A program made the position numbers and the translations under genes. Below the pieces are notes generated by a model that saw only the letters and a program-made list of their open reading frames with translations, ran no database searches and was not told the DNA's origin. DNA of 57,378 nt, filler included, from Streblomastix strix (taxonomy: Eukaryota): the NCBI GenBank assembly GCA_008636045.1. It is 2 parts of 2 records of this genome, joined end to end, with 100 filler letters (N's around TTAATTAATTAA, not from the genome) between each part and the next. Parts side by side here need not be neighbours in the genome. Positions count along the whole stretch, not along the records: positions 1 to 28,646 come from SNRW01000117.1; 1 more part is not named here. One strand, given 5' to 3'. Numbering within the stretch: the first letter of the stretch is position 1; every line of letters starts with the position of its first letter. Below, piece after piece: positions 1,981-57,378 of the stretch.

Positions 1981-2157
1981 TTGGATGAGCACAATTCTAT
2001 TCATAAGGTTTACTTTACATAATTAAACACTGAGTAATAAACATCACTTATCATGTAATTCTCAACCAATTTTTAATGAATTTTTTGTGATCCAACAATA
2101 TAAAAACTAATTCGTAGTTATTTTAATTGTGAAATAAAGTTTAATTACAAATAAATA

Positions 2158-2680
2158 AATTCATAATGTCAATTTACAAAATAATCAGCCTTGAATTGGT
2201 TCTTCTCGAGATCTCTGACAGAAAATTTCTCGGTCAGGGGCGTGATCGTCCTTCGAACTCGTTTTTCTTGCGCATATACTTTCGTACCTATCACAAATCA
2301 TAAAGCACAACCATTAAATAATACTTTTGAATTATTCCCTGATATTTTTCATGTTTCGCCGCTGTAAAACAAATATTTACTTGCTCATCGTTTTCCTGTG
2401 TTTATAGCCACCTTATGAAGTATTGGAGTTATTATTTCAATTATATTATAATAATATAATTTATTAATTTCTATCAATATTTATTTATTTCATTTCAACT
2501 TCCGATTTCACACTTTTTATTTTTTTATTTTGTTTTTCATTTCTGCTCTGAGCAATACATATGATTAATTCCAATTATGTATTTTTTTATCCTCCGGCAC
2601 ATTCATATTATTTATTTTATAATTCAATGTTTTATTCCTTCTATTCATCATTTCTCATCATTAAATAATTCTCATTACTT
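2158..2680 (+). repeat. Intergenic cassette A, copy 1 (upstream of RPS16)
   Basis: Near-identical reverse complement of 4853-5423 and 22905-23473. Core CTGACAGAAAATTTCTCGGTCAGGGGCGTGATCGTCCTTCGAACTCG. Confidence 0.92.
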
Positions 2681-2870
2681 TATGGCTTTAAATACCATTT
2701 ATAATACAAATTTTTATTTATTTTGTATTATATTAACTATGCAATAGTATTTTTCAAACTTTACACTCAGATTTTAGATTTACTTATAATTTGATAATCT
2801 ATTTTTAAAGAAATTAAATATAAAATTTTAAATAATAATGTAATTTTATTGTTTTAATTATAGATTGTAG

Positions 2871-4737: not shown

Positions 4738-4852
4738 TTGATGTTTCTACAATAAATAAAAATCATATGTTAAGTTCAAAAATTGATATAATATAATTAA
4801 TATAGCACAAAATAAATAAATAAAAGTATTATTAATAATTAATGGAAGCTAA

Positions 4853-5423
4853 AAAGCAATGAGAATGAATTTATGATGAGAAATGTTAGATAGAAGGAAT
4901 AAAGCTATGAATAATAAAATCAATGATATAAATATGCCGGAAATTGAAAAATTGTATAATTGGAATTAATCATATGTATTGCTCAGAGCAGAAATGAAAA
5001 ACAAAATAAAAAAATAAAAAGTGTGAAATCGGGAGTTGAATTGAAATAAATAAATATTGATAGAAATTAATAAATTATATTATTATAATATAATTGAAAT
5101 AATAACTCCAATACTTCATAAGGTCTCTATAAACACAGGAAAACGATGAGCAAGTAAATATTTGTTTTACTGCGGTGAAACATGCAAAATATCAGGGAAT
5201 AATTCAAAAATATTATTTAATGGTTGTGCTTTATGATTTGTGATAGGTACGAAAGTATATGCGCAAGAAAAACGAGTTCGAAGGACGATCACGCCCCTGA
5301 CCGAGAAATTTTCTGTCAGAGATCTCGAGAAGAACCAATTCGAGGCTGGATAATTTGTAAATTGTCTTAACGAATTATTAATAATTTAATAATTATAACT
5401 ATTTTTATTTAAGTTAGTTATTA
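4853..5423 (-). repeat. Intergenic cassette A, copy 2 (upstream of CSN6, divergent from acylphosphatase)
   Basis: Direct near-identity with 22905-23473, inverted relative to 2158-2680. Confidence 0.92.
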
Positions 5424-5466
5424 TTGTTTTGATTTTTAATTCAGAAGTAGTCATTTCATTATAAAA

Positions 5467-6105: not shown

Positions 6106-7845
6106 TCAATTTATCCATTTCACTTCAATTGAACCAGGAAGTTTATTGGCAACTGTTGGAGCTGTCAATTTTCTAAGAGAGAGAACAGTTACTTAATCCC
6201 CTTCATGATAAATATGAAACTATTCCAGAAAAAAGAGTTATTTAATATTACAAAATAACTTAAGAAATAGATTGCAAACATAGAATTATATTGATTTTGG
6301 CAGTTGACTGATAAAAACTTGTTACTGAATTCCATTGACAAATAGATAAGCTGTTCTCATGTTTGAATTCATATTAACTTCAATCGATATCAAATCATTT
6401 CCTTTCATTTCTTAATTTCCTTCAGTCGATTTTCCGTTTTAATAAACATTGCCACTATTTATCAATATAAAAAATAGAAATAATTAGTTAAAGAGAATAA
6501 TTCAAAAGTAATTCACAAACTCGGTATAAAAGAAAGCATTATTCTTATTATCTATAAAAAATAAACGTGAATTTAGATAAATAAAAACAAAAGAATTATT
6601 TAAATGTTTTCATACAAGAAGGATTTCCAGGGAATATTCCAAATGGAATAATCAATTCAGATTTTATAATACCAATGCCTACAACAATAACAATAATATA
6701 TAAATATAATAAATAAGTTGAAATATTATTTGACAAACAAGGATAAATTACTTAATTTAGTTTAATCTCGCATTTGTATATGCCTTAACTGATAATTGGA
6801 AGAATTGAGAATATTTTGCATTAATCCCGTGTTGAAATATATGTTTATTCATCATCTTTCTTAATATATGATCCAGCAGGAGATGCAATCGAAAAGGGGA
6901 TTTGACTTGCATTTTCTCTGGCATTTCTAACAATTTCTTCCAATTCTGCAATCTTCCTGCTTTTATCCGCATCTTTAATCTCTAAATCTGATATTTTCGA
7001 CTTTTGAATTTCGATTTCTCTAAACAACGAAGCACATTTTCTCATTTGGTTTTCAATCTCAATTTCTTTTTCTTTGTTTTCATCTTCTAATTATGTTATA
7101 TTTCTTGCTTCTGGTAATCCATGTACTCCTTAACTCGATAGAATAGTTAAAATCAATTTTGCTTTCTAATAAATTTCTTTTTTTCCTTCTTCATCTTCCT
7201 CATATTCTACTTCTTCTTCTTCTTCTTCTTCTTCAATTATTTATTTTAGTAATGAAACAAATCTACCCATTTCTATTGGATTTGCTCCATTGAATAATAA
7301 TTGATGAATAAGATCAAGAAGATTAGATTTTTCATAGATTGGAGTTTTTATATCAATCAATATATTCAGAATAAAATCTAAATATCCATTTTTCATTATT
7401 ATACTTTTCATTCTTGCATTTCTACTCATTAATTTGATAAGTGCATTAGAAGCAGCAATCGAAATATCTATTTTGGCAGAAAGAAGAGCAAATAGATGTG
7501 AAATGAAAAGATATGATAAGATTTCTTCATTATTTGATTCTAATAGTAAATATAAAGTAGAATAAAAAGTAGATAAATGAAAATATAGTAATAAATAATT
7601 TTCAATAATACCACGAAGTGAAATTGACCCAAGTTTTTATACTGCATTTGCCTAGTGAAATTTATTGTCTAATAAAAATTAGTTGGTAATAAAGTCTATT
7701 TCTTCAATCTAAATAAAAAATTAAAGAAATTAAATATTAATAATAAATAAATAAATCAAAATTTCAATACATTTTCGTTTTCATTTTCATCTTCTAAATG
7801 CAGTAAATCAAGAGGATTCAATGAATTTTCAGCTTATTTTTACAT
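6106..7845 (-). CDS. ARM-like/coiled-coil protein with C-terminal SPRY/B30.2-like domain (multi-exon)
   Basis: Spliced reading gives ..GIYKCEIK..GIGIIKS..GNQEMKGNDLISIEVNMNSNMRTAYLFVNGIQQQVFISQLPKSIQFY..EVKWIN*. Start approximate. Confidence 0.65.
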
Positions 7846-7931
7846 TGAAATTTACTATTATTTAATTAAATGCTGTATTGAAATAATAAAAAAATAAATA
7901 GATTTTATTTTTGGAAAAAAGAAACGAAATT

Positions 7932-8996
7932 AAATAATTATTTTAAATATTAGATAAAATAATGATTTAATCATAAAAATAATTTTGAATTATGAGTGAT
8001 TAATTAAAGAAAAAGAATATATCTATAAAATAATTATGAATAATTTATTGGAATAATAAAAGAAATTGAAATTGTTCGAATATTTGTAAATAAGAAAATT
8101 TGTTTTGTATTTTGTTCAATGCTACAAGATATTTTTTTGGATTTATGAAATTTTTATAATTATCATATATATTTGGTTAAATTATAAGCATTTCTATTAT
8201 ATTTCAAAGTGAAAATTAAATTAAGAACGAGAAATTGGAGATTGAAAGCAAAATTGAAAATATCATGCTTAGAAACTTTAAATATATTAAATAATTGTTG
8301 AAAGTTGTACAATATAAAGAATCTTTATTTGAGAAATAAAACTGGAATTATTTTGAGATTTGGTTCGTGTGGAATTAAGAAATTAATTTCAAGATTGGTA
8401 ATAGGTCAAAATAATGTATTGGACTCATTTTTCAGGATAGGCATGCATTTAATTGAATACTTTTGCAAATTCAAAATAATGAATAATTATATGGAAAGAA
8501 GATTGAATTACAAAGCAGAAATCCTCATTATTGGTAACTGATTAATATTATCTATCCAATTAAATACCAAAAACATACATTTAAAATGGATGTAATACAA
8601 ATTCATTGATTAACTCACCATATATTGCAATAATGTAAAATTGCGAATTCTCTCTCGATAATAACTTTCTTACTTATTCAAACTGAAATTTATAACGCAT
8701 TTTAATCTTTTAATTTAATATGCTTTCAAAAGACAAAATTGTGAGATTATCACCCTAAAATGAAGCTTAAATTTATTTTTCGCTATAAATGCATATTTCA
8801 TCTGTTCCTATTTGTTTGACAATAAATAACATATTTAGATATGAAATAAATCTTTAATTAGACATATTTTAATTATTTATGTTTAAATTTATTTCTTAAA
8901 TACATTTTATGAAACAATAATAACTAAAATTAATAATTAACTATATATTTGTATTTGCATCTTATCTAATCAATTTATTTTTATATATTTTTTTCT
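7932..8996 (+). repeat. Intergenic cassette B, copy 1 (fills the divergent SPRY / CWF19L2 spacer)
   Basis: About 1.06 kb, colinear and highly similar to 24602-25672. Confidence 0.93.
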
Positions 8997-9023
8997 TTTT
9001 AACTAAATTTTCATTAGATCTTG

Positions 9024-11573
9024 ATGTTCGAAATAGGCGAAGATATTTTCTAAAATATATTTTCTTTAAAAAAGCCTGAAAAGATTGTCTAAACTCCTAA
9101 AGATGATGATGTTTGCGATTAATTTTGATTATTATTTATTTATAATACCATTATTTTAGGAGGATATTATTCTTTCGCGAGAATTGAATCTTGATTTTAA
9201 AGCTCGTGCTTAAATACGAAGTTTATTATTTTGCCATTTTTCATTTATATTATTTTACTAATTTTTTCAGAGCGTGAATCTGAAACTATCGCAGATTCAG
9301 ATAAAGAAATTGCTGGGAATAAAAGAAGGAGATTAAATGACGATGAAGATTCTTAACTTATGAAAACTTTTGAGGACAAAATATAAAATAAGAAAATTAA
9401 GAATTCTTCTGATGAATCTGAGAAACAATAATCATAAAAGATTAATAATGATTCTTCACATAAACATCATCATCATCATCATCATGAGAAAGACTTAAAT
9501 AAAGAAGATAAATTTAAATCATAATAAATTTTAACATCAATAAATTAATCTATACCTTCATCTGAAATGGCTTAATTACCTAAATAGGATGAGTAATTAA
9601 AGTCAATTTCTGTTCCATTACAAGATGCTAATAAGAATTATGCTGCACTACTTCGATCTCAATTATAAAAACCAACTGTTTAAAAATAGATTTAAAATAA
9701 CTCATCATCTTCAATGATGCAGAATTTCAATCTTAACTTTCCAATGTAAGATAATTAATACAATATGTAAAACAAGAAGATGAATTACAATCCTTCATCT
9801 TATCTTAGACCTGAGACACAAGCTCGTTTATCTAAGACAGACTAATTAGAAGAAGAATAAATACTTGAAAATAGAATAAGCTCATAAAGTAATGATGGTA
9901 AGAGAATAGCAATAATGCCATAACTTGACTATAGAGGAATGCCAATCAAAGCTCCATAATAACTATAACCTCATTAATCAACATATTCAACATAATTCCA
10001 TAATTAATAATCAACTGATCTTGCATTAATAGAAAGATTAGGAAGAGGTTCATATGGAGAAGGTCATTTAATTGGAATGGGAAGAATCAAAGAAGATGAT
10101 GAGAGCTATGACACCCAAGGATCTACATATGGTTAGTGGGGGAATGGAGATGATCTAGATCTGAATACAGATGAATAAGACAATGAAAATGAATTTGGGA
10201 TAAGTGTAGGAGTGGATAAATAGAATATTAGGAGAAATAAGGGGAAAATAAAAGATAAGAAGAGGGAATAAAACAAAGAAAAGAAAATGAAGAAATCTCA
10301 AATAGGATTAAATGAAGAATAAGATAATAATGAATCAAATGAAAAGTATAAATAGAATAATGAGATTAAACTTGCCAGATAAGGTTTAATTATTCTTGGT
10401 TTAGTTTATTATATTTATAATTCTATATAATATTTATCTTATTATAATTCTTAGTTCATAAAATGGATGAATTAATAGACTCAAATTGTTATTTATGCTC
10501 TGATTCTTAATACTTTAGAAGAGATCTTGTAATTGCATTAGGTAATTATGCATATCTTGCTCTTCCTGGAAAAGATAAGCTTGTAGATGGTGTAAATTAA
10601 TGTAATAATATTTATTTTCGATATACTAATATTTCTCTTTATCTTTATTTAGGTCACTGCATCATTAGTCCAATTACTCATTTCAATTCTTCATTATAAT
10701 CTGATTAAGAATGTTAATCAGAAATTGAGAAGTTTAAATCTTCAATTAGAAACCTTTTTAGAAATTGGGGCTAACGTGAATGTCTATTTATGGAATGTTG
10801 TGTTAACACGTCATCAAATATGCCAACATCTTTCAATCAATCTAAGACATAATAATAAATAAGATCAGCAATTTCTATGAATCATTGTGTAATTGATTGT
10901 ATTCCAATAGATCCTTCATTCTCTAAACAAGCTCCAGCATATTACAAGAAAGAACTTTCAGAAGCTGAATCTGATTGGACTGATAATAAATCTATTATTA
11001 ATATACCCAAAGGGAAACTATTAAGGAATTGCAGTATGATTTGGATTGAAATGAATTGTAAATGTAAATGTAACAAAAAATATTTTATTATTTCATATTA
11101 TTTTATAATTAATTTTTTGTATTATTTTATTAACTACAGTTCCAAAATAACTTCCATTCTTTCATGTAGAATTTGCAGATGGAACTGGATATGGTCATAT
11201 TATTGAAGATAAGTATAAAATTCGTAGAGATTTTGGAAAAGAAATTTTGATTGGAGCTATGAATCTCACACAAGGAACAAAAAAAAAACTTTATTCTGCA
11301 TAACAAATAAATATAGAAGATAATTTTGATTAAGAAAATGATTTGAATACAATCATTGGAAAACCCTCTAAATCTTAACAACAATATTAATCTTCTAAAA
11401 TATATACCCAAGATGATGTAAAAGAATTTATCAGAAGATTTAAACCTTTTGACTGGACAACAACTTTAGATGATTAAACAACATAAAATCACACACCTTC
11501 AAATTAATATCTTTAACATTCAGTCGTACTCAGTAATAGATTTTCTTAAGCTTCATCTAAAAAATATGAGTGA
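9024..11573 (+). CDS. CWF19L2: CWF19-like protein 2 (CwfJ C-terminal domains), multi-exon
   Basis: CYLC..IALGNYAYLALP..GHCIISPITH, HCVIDCIP..APAYYKKELSEAESDW, LPFFHVEF..GYGHIIED..FGKEIL, FKPFDWT. Confidence 0.85.
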
Positions 11574-12185
11574 AAAGTAATACATTTTTATTTATATTTG
11601 ATTATATTTTATGAATGTAAGTAATGTACTTTTTTATATAATTAAATAAAAATAGGCTCTAAATAATATATCAAGATCAATTTATTCTGACTTAGAATTA
11701 TTTTTTTTTCCATAAAATTGTATTTTAATCACTGTTTATAATTGGAGATTGACCATGGATAATTTTTTAAAAAGTTTTATTTTAATTCTTATAACTATCT
11801 ACTATTTTTAAAACTATTTTAATTTTATTTATAAATATTAAAATATAAAAATATATATTATTTATCATTTTAGGCTCAAATTGATAAAAACAATTATTTT
11901 TGATTTTAAACACTGTTTTTTTGTATCAATGAAGATATTTAACTTGTTTTTATTATTTTTTCATAAATTACAATTCGTATTTTTGATAGTTTTGTATAAT
12001 TTTTAAACAATTAAATTTAAATCAGCAATACATTTATTTTTATCACAAATTTTACGCAATTATTACTATATTTTTATTTATTTTTTATTTTTAACCAAAT
12101 TTCATTATAAAACTTAAATTTTTTATACTAATTTTACAAAATTATTATTGCTTATATCAATATTTTAGATCATTTTTTATAGTTT

Positions 12186-14807
12186 ATGACAAGGATCTTT
12201 CAATGTTTTGCTCTTATTGGCTTCAAGTATGAGAGATCACTGAAAGCAACTGTAATTTATGAGTATTTGATTGAATTATATAATTTAATACTTACTTCTT
12301 TCATTCTAGTTATAGAGAGTTAGATTTCTTATACCCTGACCACTTTTTAAAGACATGCGTTGAAGATTACTCTTTCAAAACAACAAATTTAATATGGTAA
12401 GTTTATTTCCTTTAAAATTAATTTTTAATGTCAATTTAATAACAGAGCATTATCCGTTATACCAATGCCTGGTAGGAAGACAATTTTATACAAACTCTGC
12501 TTCCTTTCTCCAAATTCTAAAATTCCTCGATATCCACTTTGTTTTTGTTTTGTATCAGAATTGTCTGCGTTTATTTTTATTTTCTGCTCAAAAATGTTGG
12601 TATTTAAATGATTTATTTTCATTAGAATATGGTATAAAATGTTTGATAACACCTGCACATTACTTTACAACAAATTCTGTTAGAATATAAAGACATTATA
12701 TCCATCTAATTCATAACTAAATAATCTTCCAATTAATTGTAATCTTATTTTTTCTTAATTTTTAGATGATCTTGTATGTCAAGTTTAATATTATTTACTC
12801 GTTTAATTTATCTTCTTATTTATTTTTAATTCATATCAATGCTTTTTCAGTATAATACTCCTGTACCTCCAATTGAAATAGATAACAATGAATAAATTGA
12901 ATAAGACAATAATGAAGATGAATATAATGAAGATGAAAATAACAGCATATAATAGAAAGACAATAATCATCTTAGATAATCATCTTAAAGTCAATCAACA
13001 TTCACATCATCATCTTCTTCATCCTCTTCATCTTTTTCTTCTTCATCCTCTTCATCATCATCAGCATCTGGATCATCTTCTTCATCATCTCAATATTCAA
13101 AGACTTCATAATAATCTTTGGTTTAATAAAATCATTAATCATAAAATAAAACAAACTAAAATCCAGTTTTAAATTCTTCTAAGGAAAAAGATAAGAAAGA
13201 GGATTAAAGTAAATCTATTCATATATCAAATTAGTAAAGCAAAATAAACAAATATTAAAATATAGAAAATGGGAAATTAAAAGATAATAAAGGAAATATA
13301 AGAAAAGAATCAATCATAAATATAGAAAATAGTTCAGTGAAAGAAAAGGATTAAAAATATGAATTGTTAATTGATTAATAGTTATGAAACAATAATAATG
13401 AAAAGAATATTAATACAGATGATAAAATTATGTAAGTTAGTTTTGATGATGAAAATGGAAATATCAGTAAATAAATTAATAAAATAAATAAAACAAAATC
13501 AGAATTATTACAAAATCAATTGAAAAGCATTGAACAACAACACCAATAATAATAACAATAGTTATAATAATAACAATAGTTATAATAATAACAACAGCAA
13601 TAATAATAATAAATTTAATAACAATAAATTTAATAATAATAACAATAATAATCTATAAGTTTCCCTAAATTAAATATTTAAGAGCTTTCTTAACTTCATT
13701 AAACTAGAAGTGTAGAACTAAGAAAACATATCAATTATGGTGCCTTGGATAATATAAGAAGAATTGAACTTGATTTTTAAAACTAAAAACGAAAAGAATA
13801 AAAACATCATCATCATCAAAATAATACTTCACATTCAAATCATAACAAATAATCACAAATTTCTTAACAAATAAAAATAATAAACAATTTATAATATGAT
13901 TAAGAAAAATATGAAAAAGAAAAGCATTTAGTTAAATAGTCAGAATAAGAAAAGTAAAAAGTAGATAATAGCTAAATTGGAGAAATAACTAAGGATAATA
14001 AGAATATTAATGAATATTAAAATTAAATTTCTGATAGTTAATTAGTATAAAATAGTATTGATAGAAATGAAAATGAAGAATAAAATGATGTATAAGAATA
14101 ATCATCAGATGATAAAGAATAATATAATGTAATTCATTCAGAAGATAGATCATTAAATTAGAAAACTGATATTAAAGGGAAAATAATACAAAATTACAAT
14201 AATAAAGAGAATGACAAAACTTCAGATCATTAAACTTCGCATTAATCAAATTATTCATCAGAAAAAGAGAAAATTTAGCGTATTAACATTCAGTATTAAT
14301 AATAACCTTCATATTCACCAATTCAAACTCCTCACAGTGAAGATACATCAAATAAATATAATTAAAATTAGACAAATTAATTTGACATAGAGGTTGATAT
14401 TTCAAAAGAAAATGAATTATATAATCAGAATGAAGTGGATAAATAAATGTTAGTAAGTCCAACGTAGCTGTTTCCAATTATTTAATATGACTAATCTATT
14501 TAATAACAGATATTAATCCCCACAGCAGATTCATTGACTCTTAATATTCCAAATATTTCTGTATAATCTTCACAATCTTCTTCAAAAATGTCTTAATTCT
14601 TCTTACCATATTCATATTCTCCAACATCTCCTTAATCTTATTAATCTCAATAAAATAATTAATAGGATAAAGAAATTAATTCATAAATGATGAAGTAAAT
14701 AGAACTTATTTAATACTCCCCATGTCAATAATAAAATGACATATCATAAATTGAATTAAATTCACCAATATAACCTTAATAATAATCTTCATTAACTCTT
14801 CCTACAC

Positions 14808-14838
<31 letters not shown>

Positions 14839-17800
14839 TCCCTGATTAGATATGAATATGTTTAATAGCAACTTGTAAGTAAAGGAAGGAGAAAATAAGA
14901 ATATTAATGATACGCAATAATATACTTAATTATTGACATAGTCATAATTATAAGATGATTTAATACCTTAAAATTAATTATTATAATCTAATTTACCATT
15001 AAATTCTTCTGAATTAGATTCTTAAACCTCTAATTAATCACTTTCAAGTAATAACAACTATTAAATACAATTATAATAATAAGAATTGATGGATAACTTA
15101 TAATAATAATCATAACATAACAATCTTCCTTAATCTGCTCCTTCTTCTCCGAGCAAATATGTTAGTTAATCTCCTGGTAATATTCATTCTGATTAATAAG
15201 TTAGATAATATTTGTATAATAGTAATTTTAATAAAATGATCTAATAGAAACAAAAATCTAAATTACAGATTAAAAGTGGTCTTGGTATTTAATAATCAAA
15301 ATAGAATGCATTAGGATAAGATTAATAATTGAATGATGAAGTAAGTGGATTAATACCATAATATGGAGTATATTCACATTCCCCTTAATCTTCTTTCTCA
15401 TTAACTCTCTCTGAATCATCAGCTGCATCTACTGCTTCTACAATGCAATCATCATCATCATCCTGAACATCATTGTCTATTTAGTAGTAATTGGGGTCTT
15501 AGCTTGGAGTTGGAATATCATAACCCACTCCTATGGAAATTACATTGCACCCAAAAAGTTAAATTATTGATAACAAGTAATTTTAGACATCACTTTCTAA
15601 TTTATCAACTTTACGAATTGATTAATAATAACATGGGCATCACAAAGAAGATATAATGAAGTTAAGATTGTCTTAACCTTAAACTGCAAAAGAGAAAACA
15701 AGAGCAGTTCACAAGAATGTTATGTCTCCATTAAAGTAACAATAAAATGATTATTTCCCTAACATGAAATTGAATAATGAAAATAAATGATTACTTGACA
15801 ATAAGAATAATAAAGAAATTATAAATATATAAAATCATATTGAAATCAAAGAAGAATCAAAAAAGAAGATTGGAAGATATAGTACAGATGAAGATTCTGG
15901 AACAGGAAGCTCTGAGAATAGTTAAGAGAAAAGCAATGGAAATGAAATTCATTAAAATTAATTAAAAGATGAAGAAAAAAATAAAGAATAATAATAAAAC
16001 GAACAATAAAGTAAGAAATAGTACTAATAAAGATAGAATTATGAAGAATAAAGAACACAAGCATTAAATATTCAACATCATTAGTCTGTTGATGAATTAG
16101 TGTAAAAATAAGAAGTGATATAAGTTGCTAAAAGATATAGAAGTGACTTTGATGTCATTTAGAAAACTTTATCAAAAGAGAAGAATATTAGCTCTGAATA
16201 ATAGAAAGAATAAGATATTAATAATATTACAGATAATAATCACATAAATGAAAACCAAGAATCATAATTAGATTAATTCAAACACTCTTTTCCGATATTA
16301 CATTATATTGAATCACAAACGGATCCTTTCTCAAATTCATCTCATTCATCATAATCTGATCCAACACCACATTCTTAGGAACATACATAGAACACATCTT
16401 CATCATCATTATATGCAATGTCATAATCATCATCATCATCATTGGATAAGATAATAGATGAAACATAGCCTATATAACAAAATAAAAAAGAAATATAAAC
16501 ATAGTAGCAAAATAGTGAAGAAATAATAGAAACTCCTCCTAAACAATTTATTTCTTATTAATAAAATAAATTATAATTCTAATAATTACCTTCATAAACA
16601 CTCCAATCATTATCACATAAATCAGAAAGTGAATCTTAATAAGTATAAATTAATACTCCATTTTAAAATCCAAATATCAATTAATCAAAATAAAAGACAC
16701 TTCCTCCATTAGAACAATCAGTCCAATCTCCATTTAAAATTAAAGAAAGATAATTAATTGTTTAAGGAAATAATAATAATATAAATAGAAATAAGAATTA
16801 AGAACGAATAATTTAAGATAGTTAAAGAATAGGATAAAACTAAGAATTTTAAGAAATTAACAAGAATAATGAGAAGATAAATTCATCCTTCTTGACAAAT
16901 ACATTTGGAGATAGTTATCATGATAATAGAATTAAAGATGAAGATGTAAGTTAATTAAAAAACAAGAAATTTATAAATAATTAAACTAAGAATAAAACGG
17001 AATTAATTAGTTAATATTCAGATGGTGTATAATAATAAATATAATAGAATGAATAAGACGATTTACAATATGAAGATCCAGTTCCATTTTCAAAGACACA
17101 ATTAAGGCCTCCTCATCCGCCATATAGTTAAAGAACTCCAAAGAAAGACAGAAACATGAATATTTAGATTTCTCCTAATTAATAATTGAAGATTAGCTCA
17201 AACTTTGAAAATACGTATGAATGGAATTAATTGTTTGATTAAAAAAAATTTTCAATTAGTTACGATGGATTTAATTTCCAATAAAGTTTATTTTATGGAA
17301 ATTAATCATATAATTTTTAAAGAAGATCTAAAGATAGTGAAAATGGAAATTTGATAAATAACAAAGATATTCTGAGAAGAATAAGAAATTAAAGAAGACA
17401 CATTGGAAAATTTGCAATCAAAGTAGACAATGGAGAAGAATATATATTCATACGCTATAAAAATGAAGAGTAAAATAGAAAAAGCTTAATTTAAGAAAAA
17501 TTCGAATAAAAAAATAAGTAGATGAAATTGCCTTCTAACAATCAGGCAAAGAAATAAGCTGATACAACACAAGACAATAATTAATTATTTGAATTAAATT
17601 CTATGAATGATTCTGGAAATAAAGAGAAAGTATTAACCAATTCAGAAGATGGAGATATTAGTAGCAGTAATAGCAGTAGTTCACATATTTAATCAATGCA
17701 AGACATACAAGGACGTTTCTTATTCCCAAGAGGTCTTCCTAAACCAATTTAATATATTTAATATGTATAATATTATCCTCTTTAATCTCCATCAATATCA

Positions 17801-19213
17801 ACATATGGATCTCCAATTCTATCTTAAGCTTCATCTCCTTCTTAATCATAAACTCCTTCTTCTTCATCATAACAGGGAATATACACTTCTACTCAATCTC
17901 CACAATCTAATTCATCTAATTCTTCCATTACTGAGACTCCAGGATCAGTTAAATATTAGGGATTACAGCACTAGAAGGAATCTGAATAAAAAGAAAAGGA
18001 AAAACAATCTAATTAAAATGTGCCAATTCCATATAACATTTACATAAAAGAGAATTTTCAATTTTCACCAGAAGATTTATTTGAGAATCTTCTTAATGCA
18101 AATTAGTTTAATTAAATAGGAAGAGAGAGAACAAATAGTGAAAATGAAATCCTTGAATCATCTCAAAATAAAAATAAATAAGATCAAGATACTAAAGATT
18201 CAAAACTGTAATTTTTCTCAGACCAATAACATTCTAATACTTCTGACAAAGTATAGAATATTAGCCATTCTCCAATATTGAAAGAACATTCGTTGGGCTT
18301 ACAAACATAAAACCTTGTATTTACTTAATATAATAAATCATAATCAACGCAATTACCTACATAATCTTCTCTTAATATACCATCTAATGAGAAAATCCCT
18401 ACAATTTTATCTTCTTTAAATTAAAACTATAATTAATAAAAGTTCCCTTCTGTTCAATCTATTCTTTTCTAAATGCCTAATGATAACATTAACAACACAA
18501 CTCATATGCAATAATAATAATATCCTCCATTTTCTTATCCATTAAATCTGGCTCAATCTCCACCAATATCACCAATTGGAGACTAAACACCTTTAATGTC
18601 TCCCATTATTTCTCTTACTATATAATCAGCTCCAATTTTATAGGCTCCATAAAGTCTATTAATGAGAATGCGTGAATCACAGCAATCAATTGAAAGAATG
18701 CCAATATACAGCGAATTAAGATCTCCAGAAGTTATACGGAATAAATTAGCAATGCGATCATCCTCATAAATGTCAATGCGATTATCTGATGCATATTCTT
18801 CACCTTAAGATGCATTTCGATCTTCGAATTCAAGTGTTTGGAATTAGCAACATCCTGAAATAGCGCCAATATAGCTCACATCATCTATCTAGCTTCTTCA
18901 TGGGCTGAGAGATCTTGCAAGTCCTCCTATTGGAAACGCACCAGGAGGAAATGGAGTGAACATGGGAGCATAAGTACATCTTCTTGCATCTACTATGGCA
19001 AAGCTCAGACAATTAATGGATGCACAGATCGAGCATTTGACTAGCAGTTCAAATGAAAGCGATAATCCTGTAACTGAAAGTAGTACATAGCAGACAACGG
19101 ATGGGCATGATAGTAATTCGAGTAGTTTTGAACCTAGCGGAAATTCAAGCAATGATTTAATGTAAAGTAAAAAAGAAATAGAAGAAAGATCTTGGAACTT
19201 CCTCACTTAGTGA
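12186..19213 (+). CDS. Very large low-complexity (Q/N/S-rich) hypothetical protein
   Basis: Several small 5' exons (structure uncertain), then one frame 12851-19213 (2120 codons before the terminal TGA) with polyQ and polyS tracts and no frameshift. Four internal in-frame TGA (13385, 14843, 15464, 15788). Confidence 0.7.
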
Positions 19214-19318
19214 CACATTTCAAAACTAAAAATATATTTATATATTAATTTAATTCTGTATTTATATTGCCAATATATTAATAAATTAACCAATACTAAA
19301 AATAAATTATGTTGATCC

Positions 19319-22124
19319 TCAATATTCACCTGAAGTAAGTTTGTATGTTTTGTTTCCTTTAAGAAGAAGTTGACCACTTTAGTTCATTTTATCAATTAAA
19401 GCAGTTATATCTTTGGTTATGGCACATGCTCGTGCTGCACTGAATATTTCTGACTTTGTGAACAAACTGTTACCACGTTACTGAGCAAGAGAATTGAGTG
19501 CTCTCATCAGACGTTATGAATCTTTCTGTCTGCTCATCCCAGATGCTCGTGTTACATCAACCAATCCAGTCTCAGTAGCAAGATTCTCATATAAGGACTT
19601 CTTCATCAGATCAATAGCTTCCTAAGCATCAGATTCAGTAACTTCCTCTCTCAATTCACATTTTGCCCTAGCTTCAGCCAATCTAACAAGTGACTCAAGT
19701 TATCTAGCAGTAACAACAGCAGCATCAGAGGTATGATGTATTCGTCTAAGCTCAATGAAGTAATCTCTTAGTTTCCTTCTTGCAGGACCAGTAAGATGAG
19801 GATGACAATGTGCACGAGCATATGCAATATACCTTCTTAAGTGTTAGCAAGGAACAAGATCTAGTAATGGTTGATCAATAAGGGATGCTGCCCCCATTGA
19901 TGCTTGTGATTGTGAAATTGGAACAAGAGGACTGGATTATTAAGAGAAGTTATGTTGAGTATGTTATATCCTTGGAGTACTTAGTGTAGATGGAATATGT
20001 GGAACTAGAGGTGAAGGAGAAGATATAAATTAGCTATTAAATGCAGACTCCTACATATTCCTATATCCAACTTTATCAGCAAATTGTGCAGGTGCTGGAA
20101 TAGAGAATGGAATTTGTACTCCATTAGAATATTCAATCTTTTAACTTCTCTAACTTTCAGATAGACTACTCTATATTATACTATTATCACGTGTACTTGT
20201 TGTGCTATCAAACCATCTGTCTTCTTCATGTGTACGACGTCTATCAAATTCTTCTGGATTCTCTGCGCGTTATGCATGCATTCTGACAAGATGATCAGAT
20301 AATCTACTATCTATATCTACATCTGGCTTGTCCATCATTACAAATACAAGATCAAATCGTGAGAGTATCATTGGAGATAAACGAAGATTCTCACTCACTG
20401 TCTTTGTTAAATCATAATGTCCACCACTTGGATTCGCAGCTGCTAAAACAGAAGTTCTTGCTTAAAGAGAGCAAACCATCCCACCTTTAGCTATTGAGAT
20501 GCTTTATTGTTCCATGGCTTCAAGTAGTGACTAATGTTCATGACCCATCTTATCAAATTCATCTATACAGCATGTTCCTCTATCTCCAAGAATCAGTGCT
20601 CCAGCTTCCAATGCAAAATCACCTCCTTCTTTTACAACAGTCACAGTGAGTCCAGAACTTGTAGTAGTGTTGCCACAGACATAAACACCTCGAGGCGTGG
20701 CTGATGCAACTGCTCTGAGCATCTAACTCTTACCCATTCCAGGATCACCAACAATTAATACATGAATACTGCTTCTAATTGGACTGTATGCTGTGTTAAC
20801 CATTGATTCTCCACTTGATTGTGCAATTGCATTTCCTTATGCATTCATTTGAGCAGGCATTGCATTGGATGAAGATCCTTTTAAGTTTCCTTATCCAATA
20901 CGAACTGTTCCTCCAAAGAGAGCTAAAAGAAATCCTTGTTTGATTTGGTGATGCCCATATATATTAGGAGCTAGCGAGTTAGTTAAGAATGTAAACAAGT
21001 TCGGACGAAGTACCACTTTCCTTATTAGAGCAACATCACGAGCTGTAGAAAATGGACTAGTAGTAGAAGGATCAGGAATAGCAATTCCATCTCTGGATGT
21101 AGTTATATTATTAGCAAATATGTACAATAAGAAGAGCGTCTATGGCTTCCTTACAACTTATGCAGAACCACGTCCCCCACGTCCTCTCCAATTATTATAT
21201 CCTCTTTAATTACCTCCTCCCCTGTTAGATTATTGATTCCCACCACTGTTGGATGTACCTTCTGAATCAATTGATACTATTCTAGCTGCACCACTGACTG
21301 TAGCTATATCTCCAGGTATACAAGATCCAACTAATTCTTCAGTGAGTTCACATTCAATAGTTCTGGGTACACGTCCACTATCTTTATAGTCAGTTATTAT
21401 CTCTTATATTCTAATCTTCTGCCAATCAACAGCTTGTATAGAGCGTTTGTCAATGTTGAATATATGACTCTTACATCCATCAGTGTAGCATTTAGAAGGT
21501 GATCTATAGCGTCCTTCAGGAAAAGCCATCGTAATTCGAGCTTCACATCGCAAACAGACGAATGTTGCTTCAATAACAAGCGGTCTTACTGGTCCAACAC
21601 GTACAACGGTTCCTTTGATGCTGACAAATCGGTTAATATAGTTTGATTTAATGTCTCTTAAAGATAGTATTCGATAGTTCGATATACGAACAGCAACAGT
21701 ACGGTCTGAATAAGGAAGCCCAATAAAACCACCATCTCTGAAGATAACTTGATGAGCAGCAAGTCCAATAATTCTTACAATAGTATCATGTTCTTATTCC
21801 ATATTTGTCATAAAGTTAGACAGTGCTGGACCTTAGAGCAATTTAGATTCTGGTGGAATTGTTCGCAGGACTAGAGCATCGAAATTGATAATGAACCTGC
21901 GCGTCTAATCATTCTGTAAATACAACATAAAAATATAAATTACAAATATTAAAATGGTTGTAACTAACCTATGAGAGTGCTAAAGCGTACTTGGATGAGA
22001 AGAAATCAATCCATTTTTCGATATCAACTTTGATGCCAGCATTCTCTTCAAACGACTCTCCAGGAAAGTACATACTCCATCCAATATATGGACAAGTATG
22101 CATATCTCCCTTTCCATGTTTCAT
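19319..22124 (-). CDS. MCM8: DNA helicase MCM8
   Basis: [101 protein letters not shown]. One intron about 21915-21969. Confidence 0.93.
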
Positions 22125-22408
22125 TTCTACTAAAAAAAATATTTTCATTAAGAAAATGATGAATTGTGAAAAATAATTTCTTTTTGTTAATTCGTCGAAG
22201 TACAATTTTAAAATAGTTGTCCATTAATGTAAACATGTTATATATTATTTCATTTAGTTGGACTATACACCATAGTTAAAAATAGGGGGTTTGTATTACA
22301 CAAAACAACTAAAATTGTCAAAACATACAATAGAAAGGATGTAAAAAGTTGATTATTTTAGATTTTTATTTAAGCTGCTGGATACGCTCAATACTGAGGT
22401 GAAACTGC

Positions 22409-22765
22409 TCATTTAGCCTTCTTTTGCTCGGATTGATAGGTCGCTCCACATTTTCCACAGTAAACACGGTCCTTGTGCTGCGCCATGAAAACACCAGCAC
22501 CACAGGTTGGTGATTTGCATTCTACGCGGTTGTGAATCACAGTGCCATCATTTTATATACTGTAGTACTTCAGAACGGCTAACTTAACCTTCTTTTTCTT
22601 GTGCTTAATTTTCTTTGGCTAAGTATAGACCTTTTTCTTGTGTTTCTTGCCTCCACCACGTAAGCGAAGCACATCATCATATTCAAATTCCGCTTCAATT
22701 CAAATATAGCAATTATATATTGAAAAACATATATATGGGCAAAAATTATATCACATACGCGCCAT
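22409..22765 (-). CDS. RPS27A: 40S ribosomal protein S27a (eS31) with a 16-aa vestigial ubiquitin leader
   Basis: Exons 22765-22759 and 22692-22409: [66 protein letters not shown]. Confidence 0.93.
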
Positions 22766-22904
22766 TCCCTGAAATATATATAAAAAAATGATTGATTAGC
22801 TAAAAATTAAACCAAAATCTATTTGTTAAGTTCAAAAAATTGTACAACAAAGTTAATATAACACTATATAAACAATTGAATTATGAGAGACTAATACAAA
22901 TTAT

Positions 22905-23473
22905 AAAGTAATTAGAATTATTTAATGATGAGAAATGATGGATAGAAGGAATAAAGCTATAAATAATAAAATCAATGATATAAATATGCCGGAAATTGAA
23001 AATTTGTATAATTGGAATTAATCATATGTATTGCTCAGAGCAGAAATGAAAAACAAAATAAAAAAATAAAAAGTGTGAAATCGGGAGTTGACTTGAAATA
23101 AATAAATGTTGATAGAAATTAATAAATTATATTATTATAATATAATTGAAATAATAACTCCAATACTTCATAAGGTGGCTATAAACACAGGAAAACGATG
23201 CGCAAGTAAATATTTGTTTTACTGCGGTGAAACATGAAAAATTTCAGGTAATAATTCAAAAATATTATTTAATGGTTGTGCTTTATGATTTGTGATAGGT
23301 ACGAAAGTATATGCGCAAGAAAAACGAGTTCGAAGGACGATCACGCCCCTGACCGAGAAATTTTCTGTCAGATCTCGAGTAGGACCAATTTGGGGTTGAA
23401 TAATTTGTAAATTGACATTATGAATTATTAATAATTTATTAATTATAACTATTTTTATTTAAGTTAGTTATTA
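22905..23473 (-). repeat. Intergenic cassette A, copy 3 (upstream of RPS27A)
   Basis: Near-identical to 4853-5423. Confidence 0.92.
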
Positions 23474-23483
23474 TAAAATTAGT

Positions 23484-24573
23484 TCATTGATATGAGTATA
23501 AAATTAGCTGAGACATGTCTGCACAAATTTCTGTGAGATGCTTATGCGCTTTCTTCAAAAGAGATGATGACAATTTTTCAGCTTTGTTCTCAGATGTTGA
23601 TAAAATAGCAAGTGATACAAGATAATCATCATTAATGAGTATTTTCTTCTGCTCTTCTATAATATTGTGCTCTAAAATGTTTTTCTTATCTTAAAAGTAA
23701 GGTATTCTTGATCGTGCAATGGGAGCAAACTCTCCTTGAGCTGAAAGAGATTTAAATAGCAGTTTCAAACTCCCTGGCAAAGATCTTTCATTACTAATGT
23801 TGTGTGAAGTTAATATATTTATCAACTATTTCTGCTATTATACTGGTTCTACAAGAGATAATGTCTTATTAATATATAATGAGAAATTATTTAGAGAAAA
23901 TTATAAATAAAAAAGTAAATATACTGAATCTTAACTGTCAGTATAAACTTTCAATATGAATTCTAATTTCAAATAATCTATTTCATCGCGAGGAATGTCT
24001 AAATTAAGACAGAAAAGAATACTAAGAATAGTTTTGTTGTTTGTCTAAACTGGATTTTCAATCTGGATGTCTAAAATAGTTAAACCCACAAGTTATTCCC
24101 AAATATCAGTTATTTTAAATGATTAATGTTTTAGAATAATTTGTTCTTTTGCATTCAAGGCTTGTTAGTCTTGTAAAGTGGATTTTTAGGTCAGTAAAGA
24201 AGTTTATTCTACAGATGAAGCTTCAAGAGCAACTTTCTTGAGATCAGAAAGTTAATTCTTCAAATCTAAAATATTCTTATTCTTCTCTTCAAGAAATTAC
24301 TTACAATCATTTTCTTCAGATTCAAAGTCTGTACATCCTTAGAGAACTGAATCAAAGAATTCTTCCCCATATTCAATTGATATATCTTACATTACATCTT
24401 CTGCAAAATTAATCTCTGTTTTATATTGTTCCAAAATTTTCTGAAAAAAACAATATTCCTGAAAATGAAAAAATTGAGTTTGTTTAAAGTTAAAAAACCT
24501 CAAGTTCACTTTATAACAGTTCTTCCTCCTTATCCAATGGCAATACTTATAATATTTAACTAAAATTATCCAT
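23484..24573 (-). CDS. Hypothetical coiled-coil protein (multi-exon)
   Basis: Open spliced frame MDNFSQILQVLPLDKEEELLQSELE..LTEICADMSQLILYSYQ* with TAR=Gln. No family recognised. Confidence 0.6.
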
Positions 24574-24601
24574 TCAAATTCCTGAAAAAAGAGAGGATAT
24601 A

Positions 24602-25672
24602 AAATAATTATTTTAAAAATTAGATCAAATAGTGATTTAATCATAAAAATAATTTTGAATTATGAGTGATTGATTAAAGAAAAAGAATATATCTATAAAA
24701 TAATTATGAATAATTTATTGGAATAATAAAAGAAATTGAAATTGTTCGAATATTTGTCGATAATAAATTTTGTTTTGTTTTTTGTTCAATGTTTCAAGAT
24801 ATTTTATTGGATTTATGAAAAGTTTAGAATTATCATATATATTTGGTTAAATTATAAACATTTTTATTATATTTCAAAGTGAAATATTAAATTAAGAACG
24901 AAAATTTGGAGATTGTAAACAAAATTGAACATATCATGCTTTGAAACTTTAAATATATTAAATAATTGTTGAAAGTTGTACAATATAAAGTATCTTTATT
25001 TGAGAAATAAATATTGAATAATTTTGAGATTTGGTTCGTGTGGAATTAAGAAATTAGTTTCAAGATTGGTAATAGGTCAAAATAATGTATTGGACACATT
25101 TTTGGATATGAATGCATTTAATTGAACGCTTTTGCAAATTCAAAATAATGAATAATTATATGGAAAGAAGATTGAATTACAAAGCAGAAATCCTCATTAT
25201 TGGTTACTGATTAATATTATCTTTCCAATTAAATATTCAAAAACATACATTTAATATGAATGTAATATAGATTCATTGATTAACTCACCATATATTGCAA
25301 TAATGTAAAATTGCGAATTCTCTCTCGATAATAATTTTCTTACTTATTCAAACTGAAATTTATAACGCATTTTAATCTTTTAATTTAATCTGCTATCAAA
25401 CCACATAATTATGATTCCCTTACCCTAAAATGAAGCATAAATTTATTTTTCGCTATAAATGCATATTTCATCTGTTCCTATTTGTTTGACAATAAATAAC
25501 ATATTTAGATATGAAATAAATCTTTAATTAGACATATTTTAATTATTTATTTTTGAAATTTCATCGTAAATACATTTTATGAAACAGAAATAATAACTAA
25601 AATTAATAATAATATACTAAATATTTGTATATGCATCATATCTAATCAATTTATTTTTATATTTTTTTTCTT
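24602..25672 (+). repeat. Intergenic cassette B, copy 2 (fills the divergent hypothetical / HAD spacer)
   Basis: Colinear with 7932-8996. Confidence 0.93.
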
Positions 25673-25723
25673 ATTATCTTAATATTTTTATTTGATTTAA
25701 ATAAATTATGAAAATTATAGAAG

Positions 25724-26983
25724 ATGGATTAAATACCAATAAACTTGTCAAAAGTTAAAGTATTTTGCTCAGATTTAGATGATACCCTTTTAGATGATAA
25801 TTAGAAGATACAGCCTTATACAAAAATGATGCTATAATTACTTCTTAAAAGTGGAATTCATGTTGTATTTGCAAGTGGGAGATCACCTGATAGTGTGAGT
25901 AAATACACAAGAGAGATTCAAAGCTAAGAAATTCCATCTGATAATTAAGACATTCCAATTATTGCACTCAATGGGGGCTTTGCTTCTGTTTAGGGAATCA
26001 AACCTTATAAAGCAACTTTGAAGGAAGACATCATATTAAAATCGTTAGAGTATTGTGAGAAAAACAACTATTGCATTGGTATATCAATTGATAATTTAAT
26101 TCATATATCTTCAAAAACATAATAACTTATTTAATTTTCAAATATTCTTTTGTTTATACTTGAAGAATTCTACTCTGATGAAAATGTGATAATCAGTACT
26201 AAAGATTCATAATATCATCAATACCATAAAAATTTAGTGGGAGTTGATGTTTAACTTATTTTTTTACTATTAATTTTTATACTAATTATTGTATTGTAAT
26301 TATTGTATTCTAAAATAGGGTATTTTGATGAGTTATTTTGAAATGAGATAATTTTGCCTTTCAAAACCACCAGCAAAATTTCTTATTTGTGAAGATCCAC
26401 CTTTGATTTAAAACAAGTATAAATATTTGTTTTGATTTTATTAATTAAAAAAATATGAAACCTTTTTTAAGGATTATTCCCGACCTATCAAAATATCTTC
26501 CTTCAACATCTCGTATATTAGTAACTAAACCTTGTTTCTTAGAAGTATTGCCATCTGATACTACAAAAGCAAATGCATTAGAATGGGTTTGTAAGTATGC
26601 AGAAATATTTATTATTTGGTTTCATTTATATTAATTTATAAAAATGTATGTTATTATTTGGATAAGAAATAAATTTAAATGTAGTTTAGATTAAGTCTGT
26701 TCAATTGGTGATGGTGTTAATGACATCGAATTAGTATATTTCATAATTTCAAAATTTTACATTCGCCTTATAATTATTATTTTATTTATTTCAATATTTA
26801 TTATTATAGCTTCAAAAATGTGGACTATCATATTGTCCTGCTAATGCAAATGAAGCTGCAAAACATGCTGCATAACACATACTTAGTTGGACAAATACTT
26901 AGGACTGCGTCGGCAAATTAATAAACTAGATATTCTTTGATAACAAATATGACATTGGATCGCTCTCAAAAACAATTCTTTGA
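25724..26983 (+). CDS. Cof-like HAD-superfamily hydrolase (multi-exon)
   Basis: VFCSDLDDTLL, VVFASGRS, IALNGG, LEVLPSDTTKANAL, SIGDGVNDIE, PANANEAAK. Confidence 0.88.
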
Positions 26984-27121
26984 AAGTAGAATTTTCATTT
27001 ATTAAACAAATTATCCATCTCTTTTTAGAAATAATAAAACTTACAACTACTGTTACATTTTTTATTTATATAATTTAATAATACAAAATAACTTAAGAAA
27101 TAGATTGCAAACATAGAATTA

Positions 27122-28646: not shown

Positions 28647-28746
28647 NNNNNNNNNNNNNNNNNNNNNNNNNNNNNNNNNNNNNNNNNNNNTTAATTAATT
28701 AANNNNNNNNNNNNNNNNNNNNNNNNNNNNNNNNNNNNNNNNNNNN
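28647..28746. other. Artificial contig linker
   Basis: 44 N + TTAATTAATTAA (standard-code stops in all six frames) + 44 N. Confidence 0.97.
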
Positions 28747-28749
28747 AAT

Positions 28750-29208
28750 ACAATAATGTTCATCACTAATCTACTTCAACATCCATATTCATTAATCATT
28801 ATCAATATTGCAATCAATAATTTTATTTCAAGTGTTTATTTTCTTTTACATTATTTATATTATCATATTTATTATTATTATTTATTATTATTATTTATTT
28901 AACATTAATTTATTTTATTTTTCAATGTGGGGCACTCTCCTTTTTCACATAACTACTAAGGAGAGTGCCCCACATTGAAAAATAAAATAAAATAATATAA
29001 AATAAATAATAATAAATAATAATAATAATAAATAATATAAAATAATAATAATAATAAATAATATAAATGAAAATAAACATTTTAAATAAGATTATTGATT
29101 AAAATATTGAATATGATGAATGAATATCGACATTGAAGTAGATTAGTGATGTACATTATTGAATGATACTCTTGAAATGCATGGCACTTTCCTTTTTCAC
29201 ATAACTAC
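28750..29208. repeat. Large inverted repeat with Polinton-type AGTAGT terminus motif
   Basis: Perfect 34-bp arms 28909-28942 / 28958-28991 inside imperfect ~200-bp arms. GGCACTYTCCTTTTTCACATAACTAC occurs at 28931-28956 and 29183-29208. Confidence 0.8.
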
Positions 29209-43783: not shown

Positions 43784-44057
43784 AATAATATATATTGGCT
43801 GTACCACAGTCGACTAATTCTGCCGCGCTATTTGTAACCATAATCTCCGCGTCAAATGACTTTTATAACTAAGGCTCAAATCAGCAATGTGATACACAAA
43901 TGATATTGACAATTCAAAGCAAATATCTATGACACAAATGAGAACAATTCATCAATGTGATGCACAAATGATGTCGATAATTCTAATCAAATTTATATAA
44001 CACAAATGAACTCAATTCATCAATGTGATACACTTATCATCAAAAATAGTGATATCA

Positions 44058-49170: not shown

Positions 49171-49235
49171 TTGTGTGTGGGAAAAAAAGTCAATTTATTA
49201 CTTTGCCAATTTTCTGTATTTTTATTTTATAATAA

Positions 49236-49601
49236 ATGACATATGAAGTGAAGTCGTTATTATTGTAAATCCCGTTAATAAAAATAACTAAAGAATTACG
49301 TTAATTTGTAAAATCGAATCATGATTTGCTATTCCATGCTACAACATTCACTTTAAATAGATATATGGCAATACCACATTTTAGATTTCTTCAAAGACAT
49401 GACTATATTCATGTATATTGTGACCGTAAATGAAGATCTAGTTAACCTGAATTATTGCCTAAAAATATAAACTCTGTTGATAGCATAAATGCTATCAATT
49501 AGTTAAGTGATTAGTCAGAAAGTATTAATGAAAATTCTGATAGCAACTCCGTTGGTGTTATAAATGCTAATGCTTCGCAATCTGACTCGCCGATCAGTTG
49601 A
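49236..49601 (+). CDS. Small ORF of the nested element, divergent from pPolB
   Basis: MTYEVKSLLLQIPLIKITKELRQFVKSNHDLLFH.., 122 codons with one internal TGA. ATG is 65 bp from the pPolB ATG. Confidence 0.45.
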
Positions 49602-53637: not shown

Positions 53638-54096
<459 letters not shown>

Positions 54097-56952: not shown

Positions 56953-57378
56953 TTCTTCTTCGATCAAAAAATTTTTAAAATCGAAATAACAAATAATTAA
57001 CAGTACAAAGTTATAGATTGATAATAATGATTTGGTGTGAAAATTTGCCATTTAAATTCAAATTTTATAGTTATTATCAATAAACATAATAAGGAGTATT
57101 GATTTATGTTTATTAATATTTTCTTTATTAAATTTGCAATAATGGTGAGAATATTTATTTCTTTGCATGCAAGTTCTGATATATATTGGCATAGAATTAT
57201 ATAAAATTGGTGTATATTTCATTTGAAGTTCATTATGGCATGTGTAAAATGCATTTTTGTATAAATTTTGTAAACTGTGATTTTTTGGGGTTGGAACTTT
57301 TGAATATTTGTTAAATTGTATTAGATAAAAAACAACATATAATAGCTGATTTAATAAATATTTAAATATGGATAATAT

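Follow-up and report, generated by a model that had tools for sequence, protein, structure and literature searches.

Genes and Shared Blocks in the Window

A window of 57,378 nt from the genome of Streblomastix strix, a protist of the termite gut (GenBank assembly GCA_008636045.1), which consists of two contigs, contains a non-coding block (cassette 1) whose two copies fill the head-to-head gaps of two unrelated gene pairs. The present analysis, which followed an earlier note on the same DNA, is based on this window, one read comparison and published papers. The first contig (positions 1-28646, from SNRW01000117.1) is separated from the second by N runs and a 12-nt linker at 28647-28746, with no synteny across this junction. 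Genes of the window were read with TAA and TAG as glutamine, and 11 genes were placed on the 28.6-kb first contig (115-1980 being counted as one). Cassette 1 and the four genes around it are as follows:

7914-9019, no strand assigned: cassette 1 copy A, putative shared divergent promoter block (BLAST against copy B, and alignment)
24584-25696, no strand assigned: cassette 1 copy B (BLAST and alignment; both ends bridged by contigs of sequencing run X1)
6106-7845, minus strand: left gene of copy A, hypothetical protein with a frame-restoring intron, 3' end approximate
9024-11573, plus strand: right gene of copy A, CwfJ/CWF19-family protein (Pfam CwfJ_C_1 and CwfJ_C_2; database record P0002, 100%)
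23484-24573, minus strand: left gene of copy B, hypothetical protein EZS28_001187 (database record P0001)
25724-26983, plus strand: right gene of copy B, Cof-type HAD hydrolase (Pfam Hydrolase_3, E 1.5e-18)

Self-BLAST aligned the two copies, which lie 16.7 kb apart, in the same orientation with 92.1% identity over 1116 columns (E=0), bearing out the colinear repeat described in the note. The limits given there (7932-8996 and 24602-25672) were somewhat narrow, as the similarity extends 18-24 nt beyond them on either side and takes in the pyrimidine tracts up to the acceptor AGs. Within those limits the copies differ by 69 substitutions (24 transitions and 45 transversions) and 5 indels spread along the span. 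Identity per 50 columns is 82-100% inside the block and falls to about 40-50% by 50-100 nt from each end. Nearly all of the space between the start codons is thus occupied, 1106 of 1178 nt (94%) by copy A and 1113 of 1150 nt (97%) by copy B. A strict BLAST search within the window found no third copy of cassette 1, and a permissive one returned only AT-rich noise (56-72%).

The four start codons had been placed correctly at 7845 (minus), 9024 (plus), 24573 (minus) and 25724 (plus). Paralogy of the flanking genes was rejected by pairwise comparison, the best E value being 0.42 for the two left genes and 19 for the two right genes. The N-termini of P0001 and P0002 are identical, letter by letter, to database gene models, and the HAD start is backed by the Pfam match, which begins 15 residues in. 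The 7845 gene had no Pfam match and no match among longer proteins; its start is based solely on the frame-restoring intron, without database support.

A Probable Bidirectional Promoter

Both gene pairs stand head to head about 1 kb apart, a spacing found at bidirectional promoters, and the center of cassette 1 carries two outward-facing TATA-like boxes:

8688-8697 (copy B 25358-25367), minus strand: leftward TATA-like box CGTTATAAAT, a match to CGYTATAAAT
8781-8790 (copy B 25451-25460), plus strand: rightward TATA-like box CGCTATAAAT, a match to CGYTATAAAT

The second box contains the TATAAAT that had been noticed near 8784 and is present in both copies. CGYTATAAAT, a pattern picked post hoc, has four matches in the window, all of them in cassette 1 (0.52 expected), and the twin boxes are 84 nt apart in copy A as well as in copy B. 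The GC skew ranges from +0.37 to +0.67 left of 8460 and from -0.10 to -0.36 right of 8560, with a flip near 8500. With 9-10 matches on a single strand of cassette 1, the TATA-like motif of Monocercomonoides exilis, RTATTTB, singles out no position. Based on the back-to-back boxes and the skew flip, cassette 1 is probably a bidirectional host promoter from which two transcripts would start.

A Second Block Family with the Same Placement

Three copies of another block of about 0.68 kb (cassette 2), which was absent from the note and showed no relation to cassette 1 in the strict BLAST search, were found on the same contig, with 87-91% identity:

2132-2806, plus strand: cassette 2 copy a (BLAST), ending 64 nt upstream of the RPS16 ATG (2871)
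4753-5424, minus strand: cassette 2 copy b (BLAST), between a JAB/MPN gene (ATG 4737, minus strand) and an acylphosphatase gene (ATG 5467, plus strand)
22784-23474, minus strand: cassette 2 copy c (BLAST), 18 nt upstream of the RPS27a ATG (22765) and 9 nt past the P0001 stop codon

The JAB/MPN and acylphosphatase genes stand back to back around copy b. Considering both families, eight of the 11 placed genes begin within 70 nt of the end of a shared block; two genes (12186 and MCM8) have no block nearby, and for one more the upstream DNA is cut by the contig start. Eight of the 10 ends of the five copies fall 4-68 nt upstream of an ATG, and the other two lie 9 and 151 nt past stop codons. Since an independent second family has the same placement, the reading of cassette 1 as a bidirectional promoter is strengthened. 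Exact 21-22-nt patterns of both cassettes had no locus in metagenome, viral and genome contig collections, in which this organism is possibly not included.

Variable sites are unevenly distributed in cassette 2 (15 of 377 in the core and 63 of 196 in the gene-side tail), and the stretch 2212-2291 is invariant in all three copies. The much lower variability of the core suggests selection or gene conversion. A reverse-strand TATA-like box (2401-2409, 23177-23185) faces the invariant GC-rich core. This box is retained even in the two copies where that side lacks a gene, and a non-coding or antisense RNA may be transcribed from it. Regarding the neighboring RPS27a gene (22409-22765), its N-terminal piece has 16 residues and ends in LRLRGG, with no whole ubiquitin.

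Predicted Leader Exons and Introns

Splice signals were compared with a local model of 16 internal introns, which were chosen by the author for restoring reading frames. These are 43-76 nt long, with donors GTAT (8), GTTT (7) and GTTA (1), none with GTGA, and with acceptors CAG (7), TAG (6) and AAG (3). The seven GTTT donors and three AAG acceptors make the set looser than the published GTATG/YAG consensus; introns of S. strix were reported to have a GTATG-type donor and a length of 46-229 nt (PMC1501061). The following candidates were found in both copies of cassette 1:

8573-8578 (copy B 25248), minus strand: predicted best leftward leader donor T|GTATGT, the top score common to both copies under the 16-intron model
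8614-8619 (copy B 25284-25289), minus strand: candidate donor G|GTGAGT of the earlier note
8951-9017, 67 nt (copy B 25627-25720, 94 nt, donor GTATAT), plus strand: predicted rightward 5' untranslated region (5'-UTR) intron GTATTT...TAG, AG-free, T-rich and of typical local size

The GTGAGT is where it had been described, but it is atypical of this genome rather than canonical, because none of the 16 local introns starts with GTGA, and GTATGT at 8578/25248 is a better fit. An alternative rightward donor is GTTTGA at 8814/25484. Around the GTGAGT, a motif CTCACCAT-N(0-2)-TATTGCAA was observed, which recurs at 57134-57149, upstream of the 56952 gene and pointing away from it, in the same orientation as in cassette 1; this pattern, chosen post hoc, has three matches and none in shuffled sequences. 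Owing to this recurrence, GTGAGT is retained as a less likely donor. The DNA around 57134-57149 is not alignable to cassette 1.

Acceptors were scored against a null of 2402 overlapping intergenic windows. The scores before the four cassette 1 ATGs were reached by 0.000, 0.015, 0.000 and 0.144 of the null windows (three in the top 1.5% and the fourth at 14%), and those of four cassette 2 genes by 0.022, 0.071, 0.004 and 0.000. AG-free T-rich runs of 148, 154, 109 and 131 nt precede the cassette 1 ATGs, with the AG 3-27 nt before the ATG. YAG-type acceptors are present as had been proposed, although not always just outside the cassette, as one AG per copy lies at the edge of the block (9016-9017; 24582-24583). 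In addition, splicing as predicted would eliminate an out-of-frame ATG at 25708, which lies 16 nt upstream of the HAD start codon. From these signals it is predicted, with about even confidence, that cassette 1 supplies each gene with a leader exon and with almost all of a 5'-UTR intron, which would be spliced to the AG before the ATG. Such introns have been annotated in Monocercomonoides, in which 552 introns lie in annotated 5'-UTRs and 5279 genes have an annotated 5'-UTR (PMC8767320).

A further ATG common to both copies (8909-9023, 25579-25723) would, if splicing took place at 8951/25627, be in frame with both CwfJ and HAD; the two indels in these intervals are each of 3 nt (hand count). 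Cassette 1 might thus be a source of a short N-terminal peptide, a frame coincidence expected by chance in about one of nine cases.

Coding and RNA Signatures

A coding remnant was rejected, as the reading frame of cassette 1 is broken by 1-2-nt indels at three places and no homology was found in the single frame searched. Codon-position bias is absent in three of four blocks (p 0.014 in the remaining one), and a search of one of the six frames against 1.84 billion proteins gave one match, of 25 residues summed over repeats of P0003, which is spurious. A non-coding RNA or tRNA gene was also rejected: Rfam gave no match in either cassette at E<=5 and ARAGORN no tRNA, and the cores fold no better than shuffled sequences (z +0.92, -0.83, -0.37 and +0.59); two of 56 sliding windows had a z below -2.5.

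These results bear on the possibility that the blocks are small-RNA genes, spliced-leader-like or other, whose leaders are joined in trans at the acceptor before the ATG. Acceptor-like AGs precede most ATGs whether a cassette is present or not, the invariant stretch of cassette 2 and the recurrence of the GTGAG context upstream of an unrelated gene at 57134-57149 would be in keeping with it, and an odd 5' boundary was reported for one rps9 intron of S. strix that lies close to where the transcript starts (PMC1501061). The lack of an Rfam match and of a stable core fold argues against it, none of the papers listed by a literature search reported spliced leaders in oxymonads, and the pair formed by the cassette 1 core and the 57134-57149 region was not among the six of 28 pairs with p<0.1. 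Trans-splicing is therefore considered quite improbable.

Read Support and the Question of Artefact

In run X1, which is possibly the source sample and hence not independent, copy B is crossed at either end by single contigs (48 and 33 letters inside), as is cassette 2 copy c on its gene side. Run X2, from another study, covers 22764-22912 with six differences and reaches 20 letters past the block edge, which is below the 31-letter rule. Run X3, of unknown kind, gave no contig on 22300-26500, a zero that may be false. A core contig of X1 has a depth of 45.8 (13-14 on the flanks) and carries copy-A letters plus one letter that differs from both copies; at 25673, a loose end leads to another YAG with an ATG 8 nt later. 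These are hints of more copies, although the contig may be a mosaic and the loose end an AT-rich match by chance; read depth was not taken as copy number, and loose ends in AT-rich DNA are possible chance matches.

An assembly or amplification artefact, by which one locus was duplicated or cross-joined in a single-cell assembly, would be suggested by the composition of the window (two contigs over N runs, the second opening with a 417-nt fold-back), by the shape of the 16.7-kb inter-copy segment, which resembles an unrolled loop, and by the possible identity of X1 with the source sample. However, the substitutions and indels between the copies are evenly spread, unlike those of a collapsed or chimeric copy, X1 contigs run across the block edges at copy B (both sides) and at copy 2c (gene side), and X2 comes from another study. 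Even with the flanks swapped, four different genes would remain on one block. Because the copies are 8% apart, they are not a collapsed repeat, which the note had raised as a danger, or an amplification chimera, and an artefact appears extremely improbable.

Origin of the Second Copy

The block had been called a portable bidirectional promoter. The anatomy agrees with the promoter part of this description (non-coding sequence, divergent gaps, twin TATA-like boxes and skew flip), but self-mobility is unsupported. Only 16.7 kb separates the copies, and the earlier DNA of the two gaps has disappeared instead of being displaced. The note had seen no terminal inverted repeats (TIRs) or target-site duplications (TSDs), and the present analysis found no TIRs and no convincing TSD. 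End-to-end local alignment against 500 shuffles gave p values of 0.094 and 0.97 for cassette 1 and of 0.084, 0.47 and 0.99 for cassette 2, and an inverted-repeat search found only AT-rich arms (71-83%) away from the termini. A TIR DNA transposon or miniature inverted-repeat transposable element was rejected, as none of the five copies has TIRs at its ends. In the TSD scan, both copies gave at least 4 nt for 23 of 3060 boundary pairs. The best six consist of A/T runs, and in five of them the left limit falls inside the shared block; a TA-type TSD of 2-3 nt would be compatible with the data. Long terminal repeat (LTR) ends TG...CA with a 4-6-nt TSD were not found, the ends of cassette 1 being GAAAAAAG...TTAGAT with no TSD there. 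The open reading frames (ORFs) between copies A and B encode CwfJ, MCM8 and RPS27a, with no gag/pol-type retroelement domain among them. Helitron 5'-TC and 3'-CTRR ends were not seen on either strand at the BLAST ends, which are fuzzy by 20 nt, and as to a subterminal hairpin, the end windows fold at z -1.7 at best.

One way to account for these blocks is a non-autonomous element of the Helitron, Crypton or solo-LTR type, mobile but lacking TIRs and TSDs, which enters short head-to-head gaps and was exapted as an outward promoter. The sharp ends of cassette 1, the hints of extra copies in X1 (the depth of the core contig and the loose end) and other mobile DNA in the genome, on the second contig and in published work (PMC10120064), are in its favor. 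The lack of TIRs and of TSDs at the block ends speaks against it, as do the fraying ends of cassette 2, the absence of a transposase-like remnant in the single frame searched and the clustering of the copies within 24 kb. Moreover, the empty sites would have had just 72 and 37 nt between the two start codons, with no space for a prior promoter. A mobile element is thus regarded as rather unlikely.

We consider it slightly more probable than not that the second copy arose by local rearrangement. At the inner junctions (block to CwfJ, and block to P0001), an AG is found at the edge of the block, with 6 and 8 nt separating it from the start codon. The outer junctions have lost the homologous AG (TTG and CCA), and another AG lies 26 and 40 nt farther out. 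If the 16.7-kb inter-copy segment is closed into a circle, P0001 and CwfJ become a head-to-head pair with a single block between them. On the basis of this junction asymmetry alone, we infer that an ancestral pair P0001-block-CwfJ lay on the 16.7-kb segment, which might have inserted again, in circular form, between the 7845 and HAD genes. In this event the block would have been copied at both junctions, replacing the promoter of these two genes. The breakpoints would fall within T-rich intron ends, where a join spares the acceptor and the coding sequence, and selection may keep such joins, as every gene needs a promoter. Cassette 2 could represent the same process acting on a second promoter.

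The interleaved arrangement of the two families leads to another possibility, in which a 17-18-kb segment was duplicated in tandem and genes were reciprocally lost, while the promoters were kept and fused to different genes by deletions ending in leader introns. Copies 2b/2c and 1A/1B are direct repeats that agree in order and orientation, and the two pairs are alike in spacing (18,050 and 16,670 nt) and in divergence (Jukes-Cantor 0.097 and 0.083). However, self-comparison showed no pseudogene remnant, though copies diverged by 8-9% should be visible, many clean deletions would be required, and the inverted copy 2a is left unexplained. Duplication followed by loss is accordingly judged improbable.

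The reading favored as a whole, that cassette 1 is a host promoter-leader module copied by local rearrangement and not by a transposon, is judged roughly as probable as all of its alternatives taken together, and several points weigh against it. TATAAA occurs three times per strand in copy A, which is about the expectation from composition, and the CGY context was chosen post hoc. The leftward intron would be about 670-740 nt long, compared with 43-76 nt for local introns and 46-229 nt for published ones (PMC1501061). Upstream ATGs are present in the predicted leader exons under every donor choice, and with donors as degenerate as GTWT, candidate donors are common. Three of five cassette-less genes also have an acceptor-like AG (MCM8 0.019, the 12186 gene 0.070 and the zinc-finger gene 0.096), the two without this pattern being the tubulin gene (0.62) and the 56952 gene (0.22). 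As acceptors are common to gene starts without a cassette, they are weak evidence for cassette-specific splicing; acceptor-like AGs could instead mark core promoters in general, in which case transcription would start at the block edge. Finally, two copies cannot fix the direction of copying, and additional copies, if the signals in X1 hold, would weaken the single-event circle model.

Implications for Gene Expression in S. strix

In eukaryotes a promoter usually belongs to one gene or to its paralogues, and shared promoters are normally transposon-derived. A more general proposal, which is speculative and more likely wrong than right by a wide measure, is that housekeeping genes of S. strix are largely driven by a few interchangeable families of kilobase promoter-leader modules, with whole promoters being swapped between unrelated genes through recombination in T-rich intron ends and no transposon involved. 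If this is true, genes would be bare units starting at a splice acceptor, the 8/11 pattern of the contig would be typical, and the mRNAs of RPS16, RPS27a and the JAB/MPN subunit would share leader exons. Whole host promoters copied among unrelated essential genes would represent a transposon-free route to rewired expression and gene order. They would also offer natural reporter sets, in which one promoter serves several genes and the conserved parts mark what oxymonad promoters need. If the pattern is limited to this contig, it would be a curious local rearrangement.

Other Features of the Window

Several additional features were observed in the window. A 49-nt direct repeat (98%) links 6240-6288, in the 3' part of the 7845 gene, with 27073-27121, in gene-free DNA past the HAD gene. 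On the second contig, which starts with a 417-nt imperfect palindrome (28748-29164, 82%; maybe an amplification fold-back, with chance matches to microRNA families), inverted repeats of 246 nt (99.2%) at 43784-50181 surround broken ORFs (44058-49044), which have the look of a protein-primed DNA polymerase B by motif reading and no Pfam match. Decayed element-like ORFs were also detected at 29-43 kb and 50-52 kb, and endogenous DNA viruses have been reported from S. strix (PMC10120064). In the region 53638-54900, a beta-tubulin start (author's reading) breaks off near 54110. A SNORD18-like match at 54199-54276 scored 40.1 bits (gathering threshold 41; E 4.5e-4), with more C/D-box-like motifs nearby.

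Comparison with Known Systems

Bidirectional promoter regions normally belong to a single gene pair or are common to paralogues only. Repeats at the 5' ends of genes that lend processing or promoter signals include SIRE/SIDER of trypanosomatids, Tf1 of fission yeast and Pack-MULEs. The cassettes of S. strix differ from these, which are recognizable transposon derivatives with defined ends. A search of the oxymonad literature gave no description of such cassettes, which the S. strix genome paper or its supplement might mention, and the available parts of PMC6759080, PMC8767320, PMC10703272 and PMC13002328 describe no such blocks.

Ordinary bidirectional promoters are similar in that they separate head-to-head genes about 1 kb apart and have TATA-like motifs and leader introns, both of which are described from M. 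exilis (PMC6759080 and PMC8767320, respectively). Segmental duplication mediated by circles (PMC7450558) offers a parallel for reordered genes and new junctions from circle re-integration; unlike in that system, the S. strix genes are single-copy in the window and the promoter block alone is doubled.

Promoter cassettes that recur between genes and precede unrelated ones are also known from viruses, namely the PeSL cassettes of T4-type phages (PMC2839356) and the intergenic repeats of HF2 (PMC8707807). There, recombination between nearby copies shuffles modules and yields circles. As a further likeness, cassette 2 copy c contains the sole 3'-UTR space of its upstream gene (P0001). These cassettes belong to prokaryotic viruses, are tens of bases long, and consist of a sigma-70 promoter and a terminator with no splicing.

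A functional likeness is seen in mammalian LTRs (HERVH, THE1D and MLT2A1; PMC10616205), in which one repeat acts as promoter and spliced first exon of many unrelated genes. They are ends of retroelements and mostly provide alternative promoters, whereas cassette 1 has no LTR hallmarks and is apparently the sole upstream DNA of its genes. Unlike mammalian LTR promoters, the cassettes of S. strix appear to serve housekeeping genes and to face both ways.

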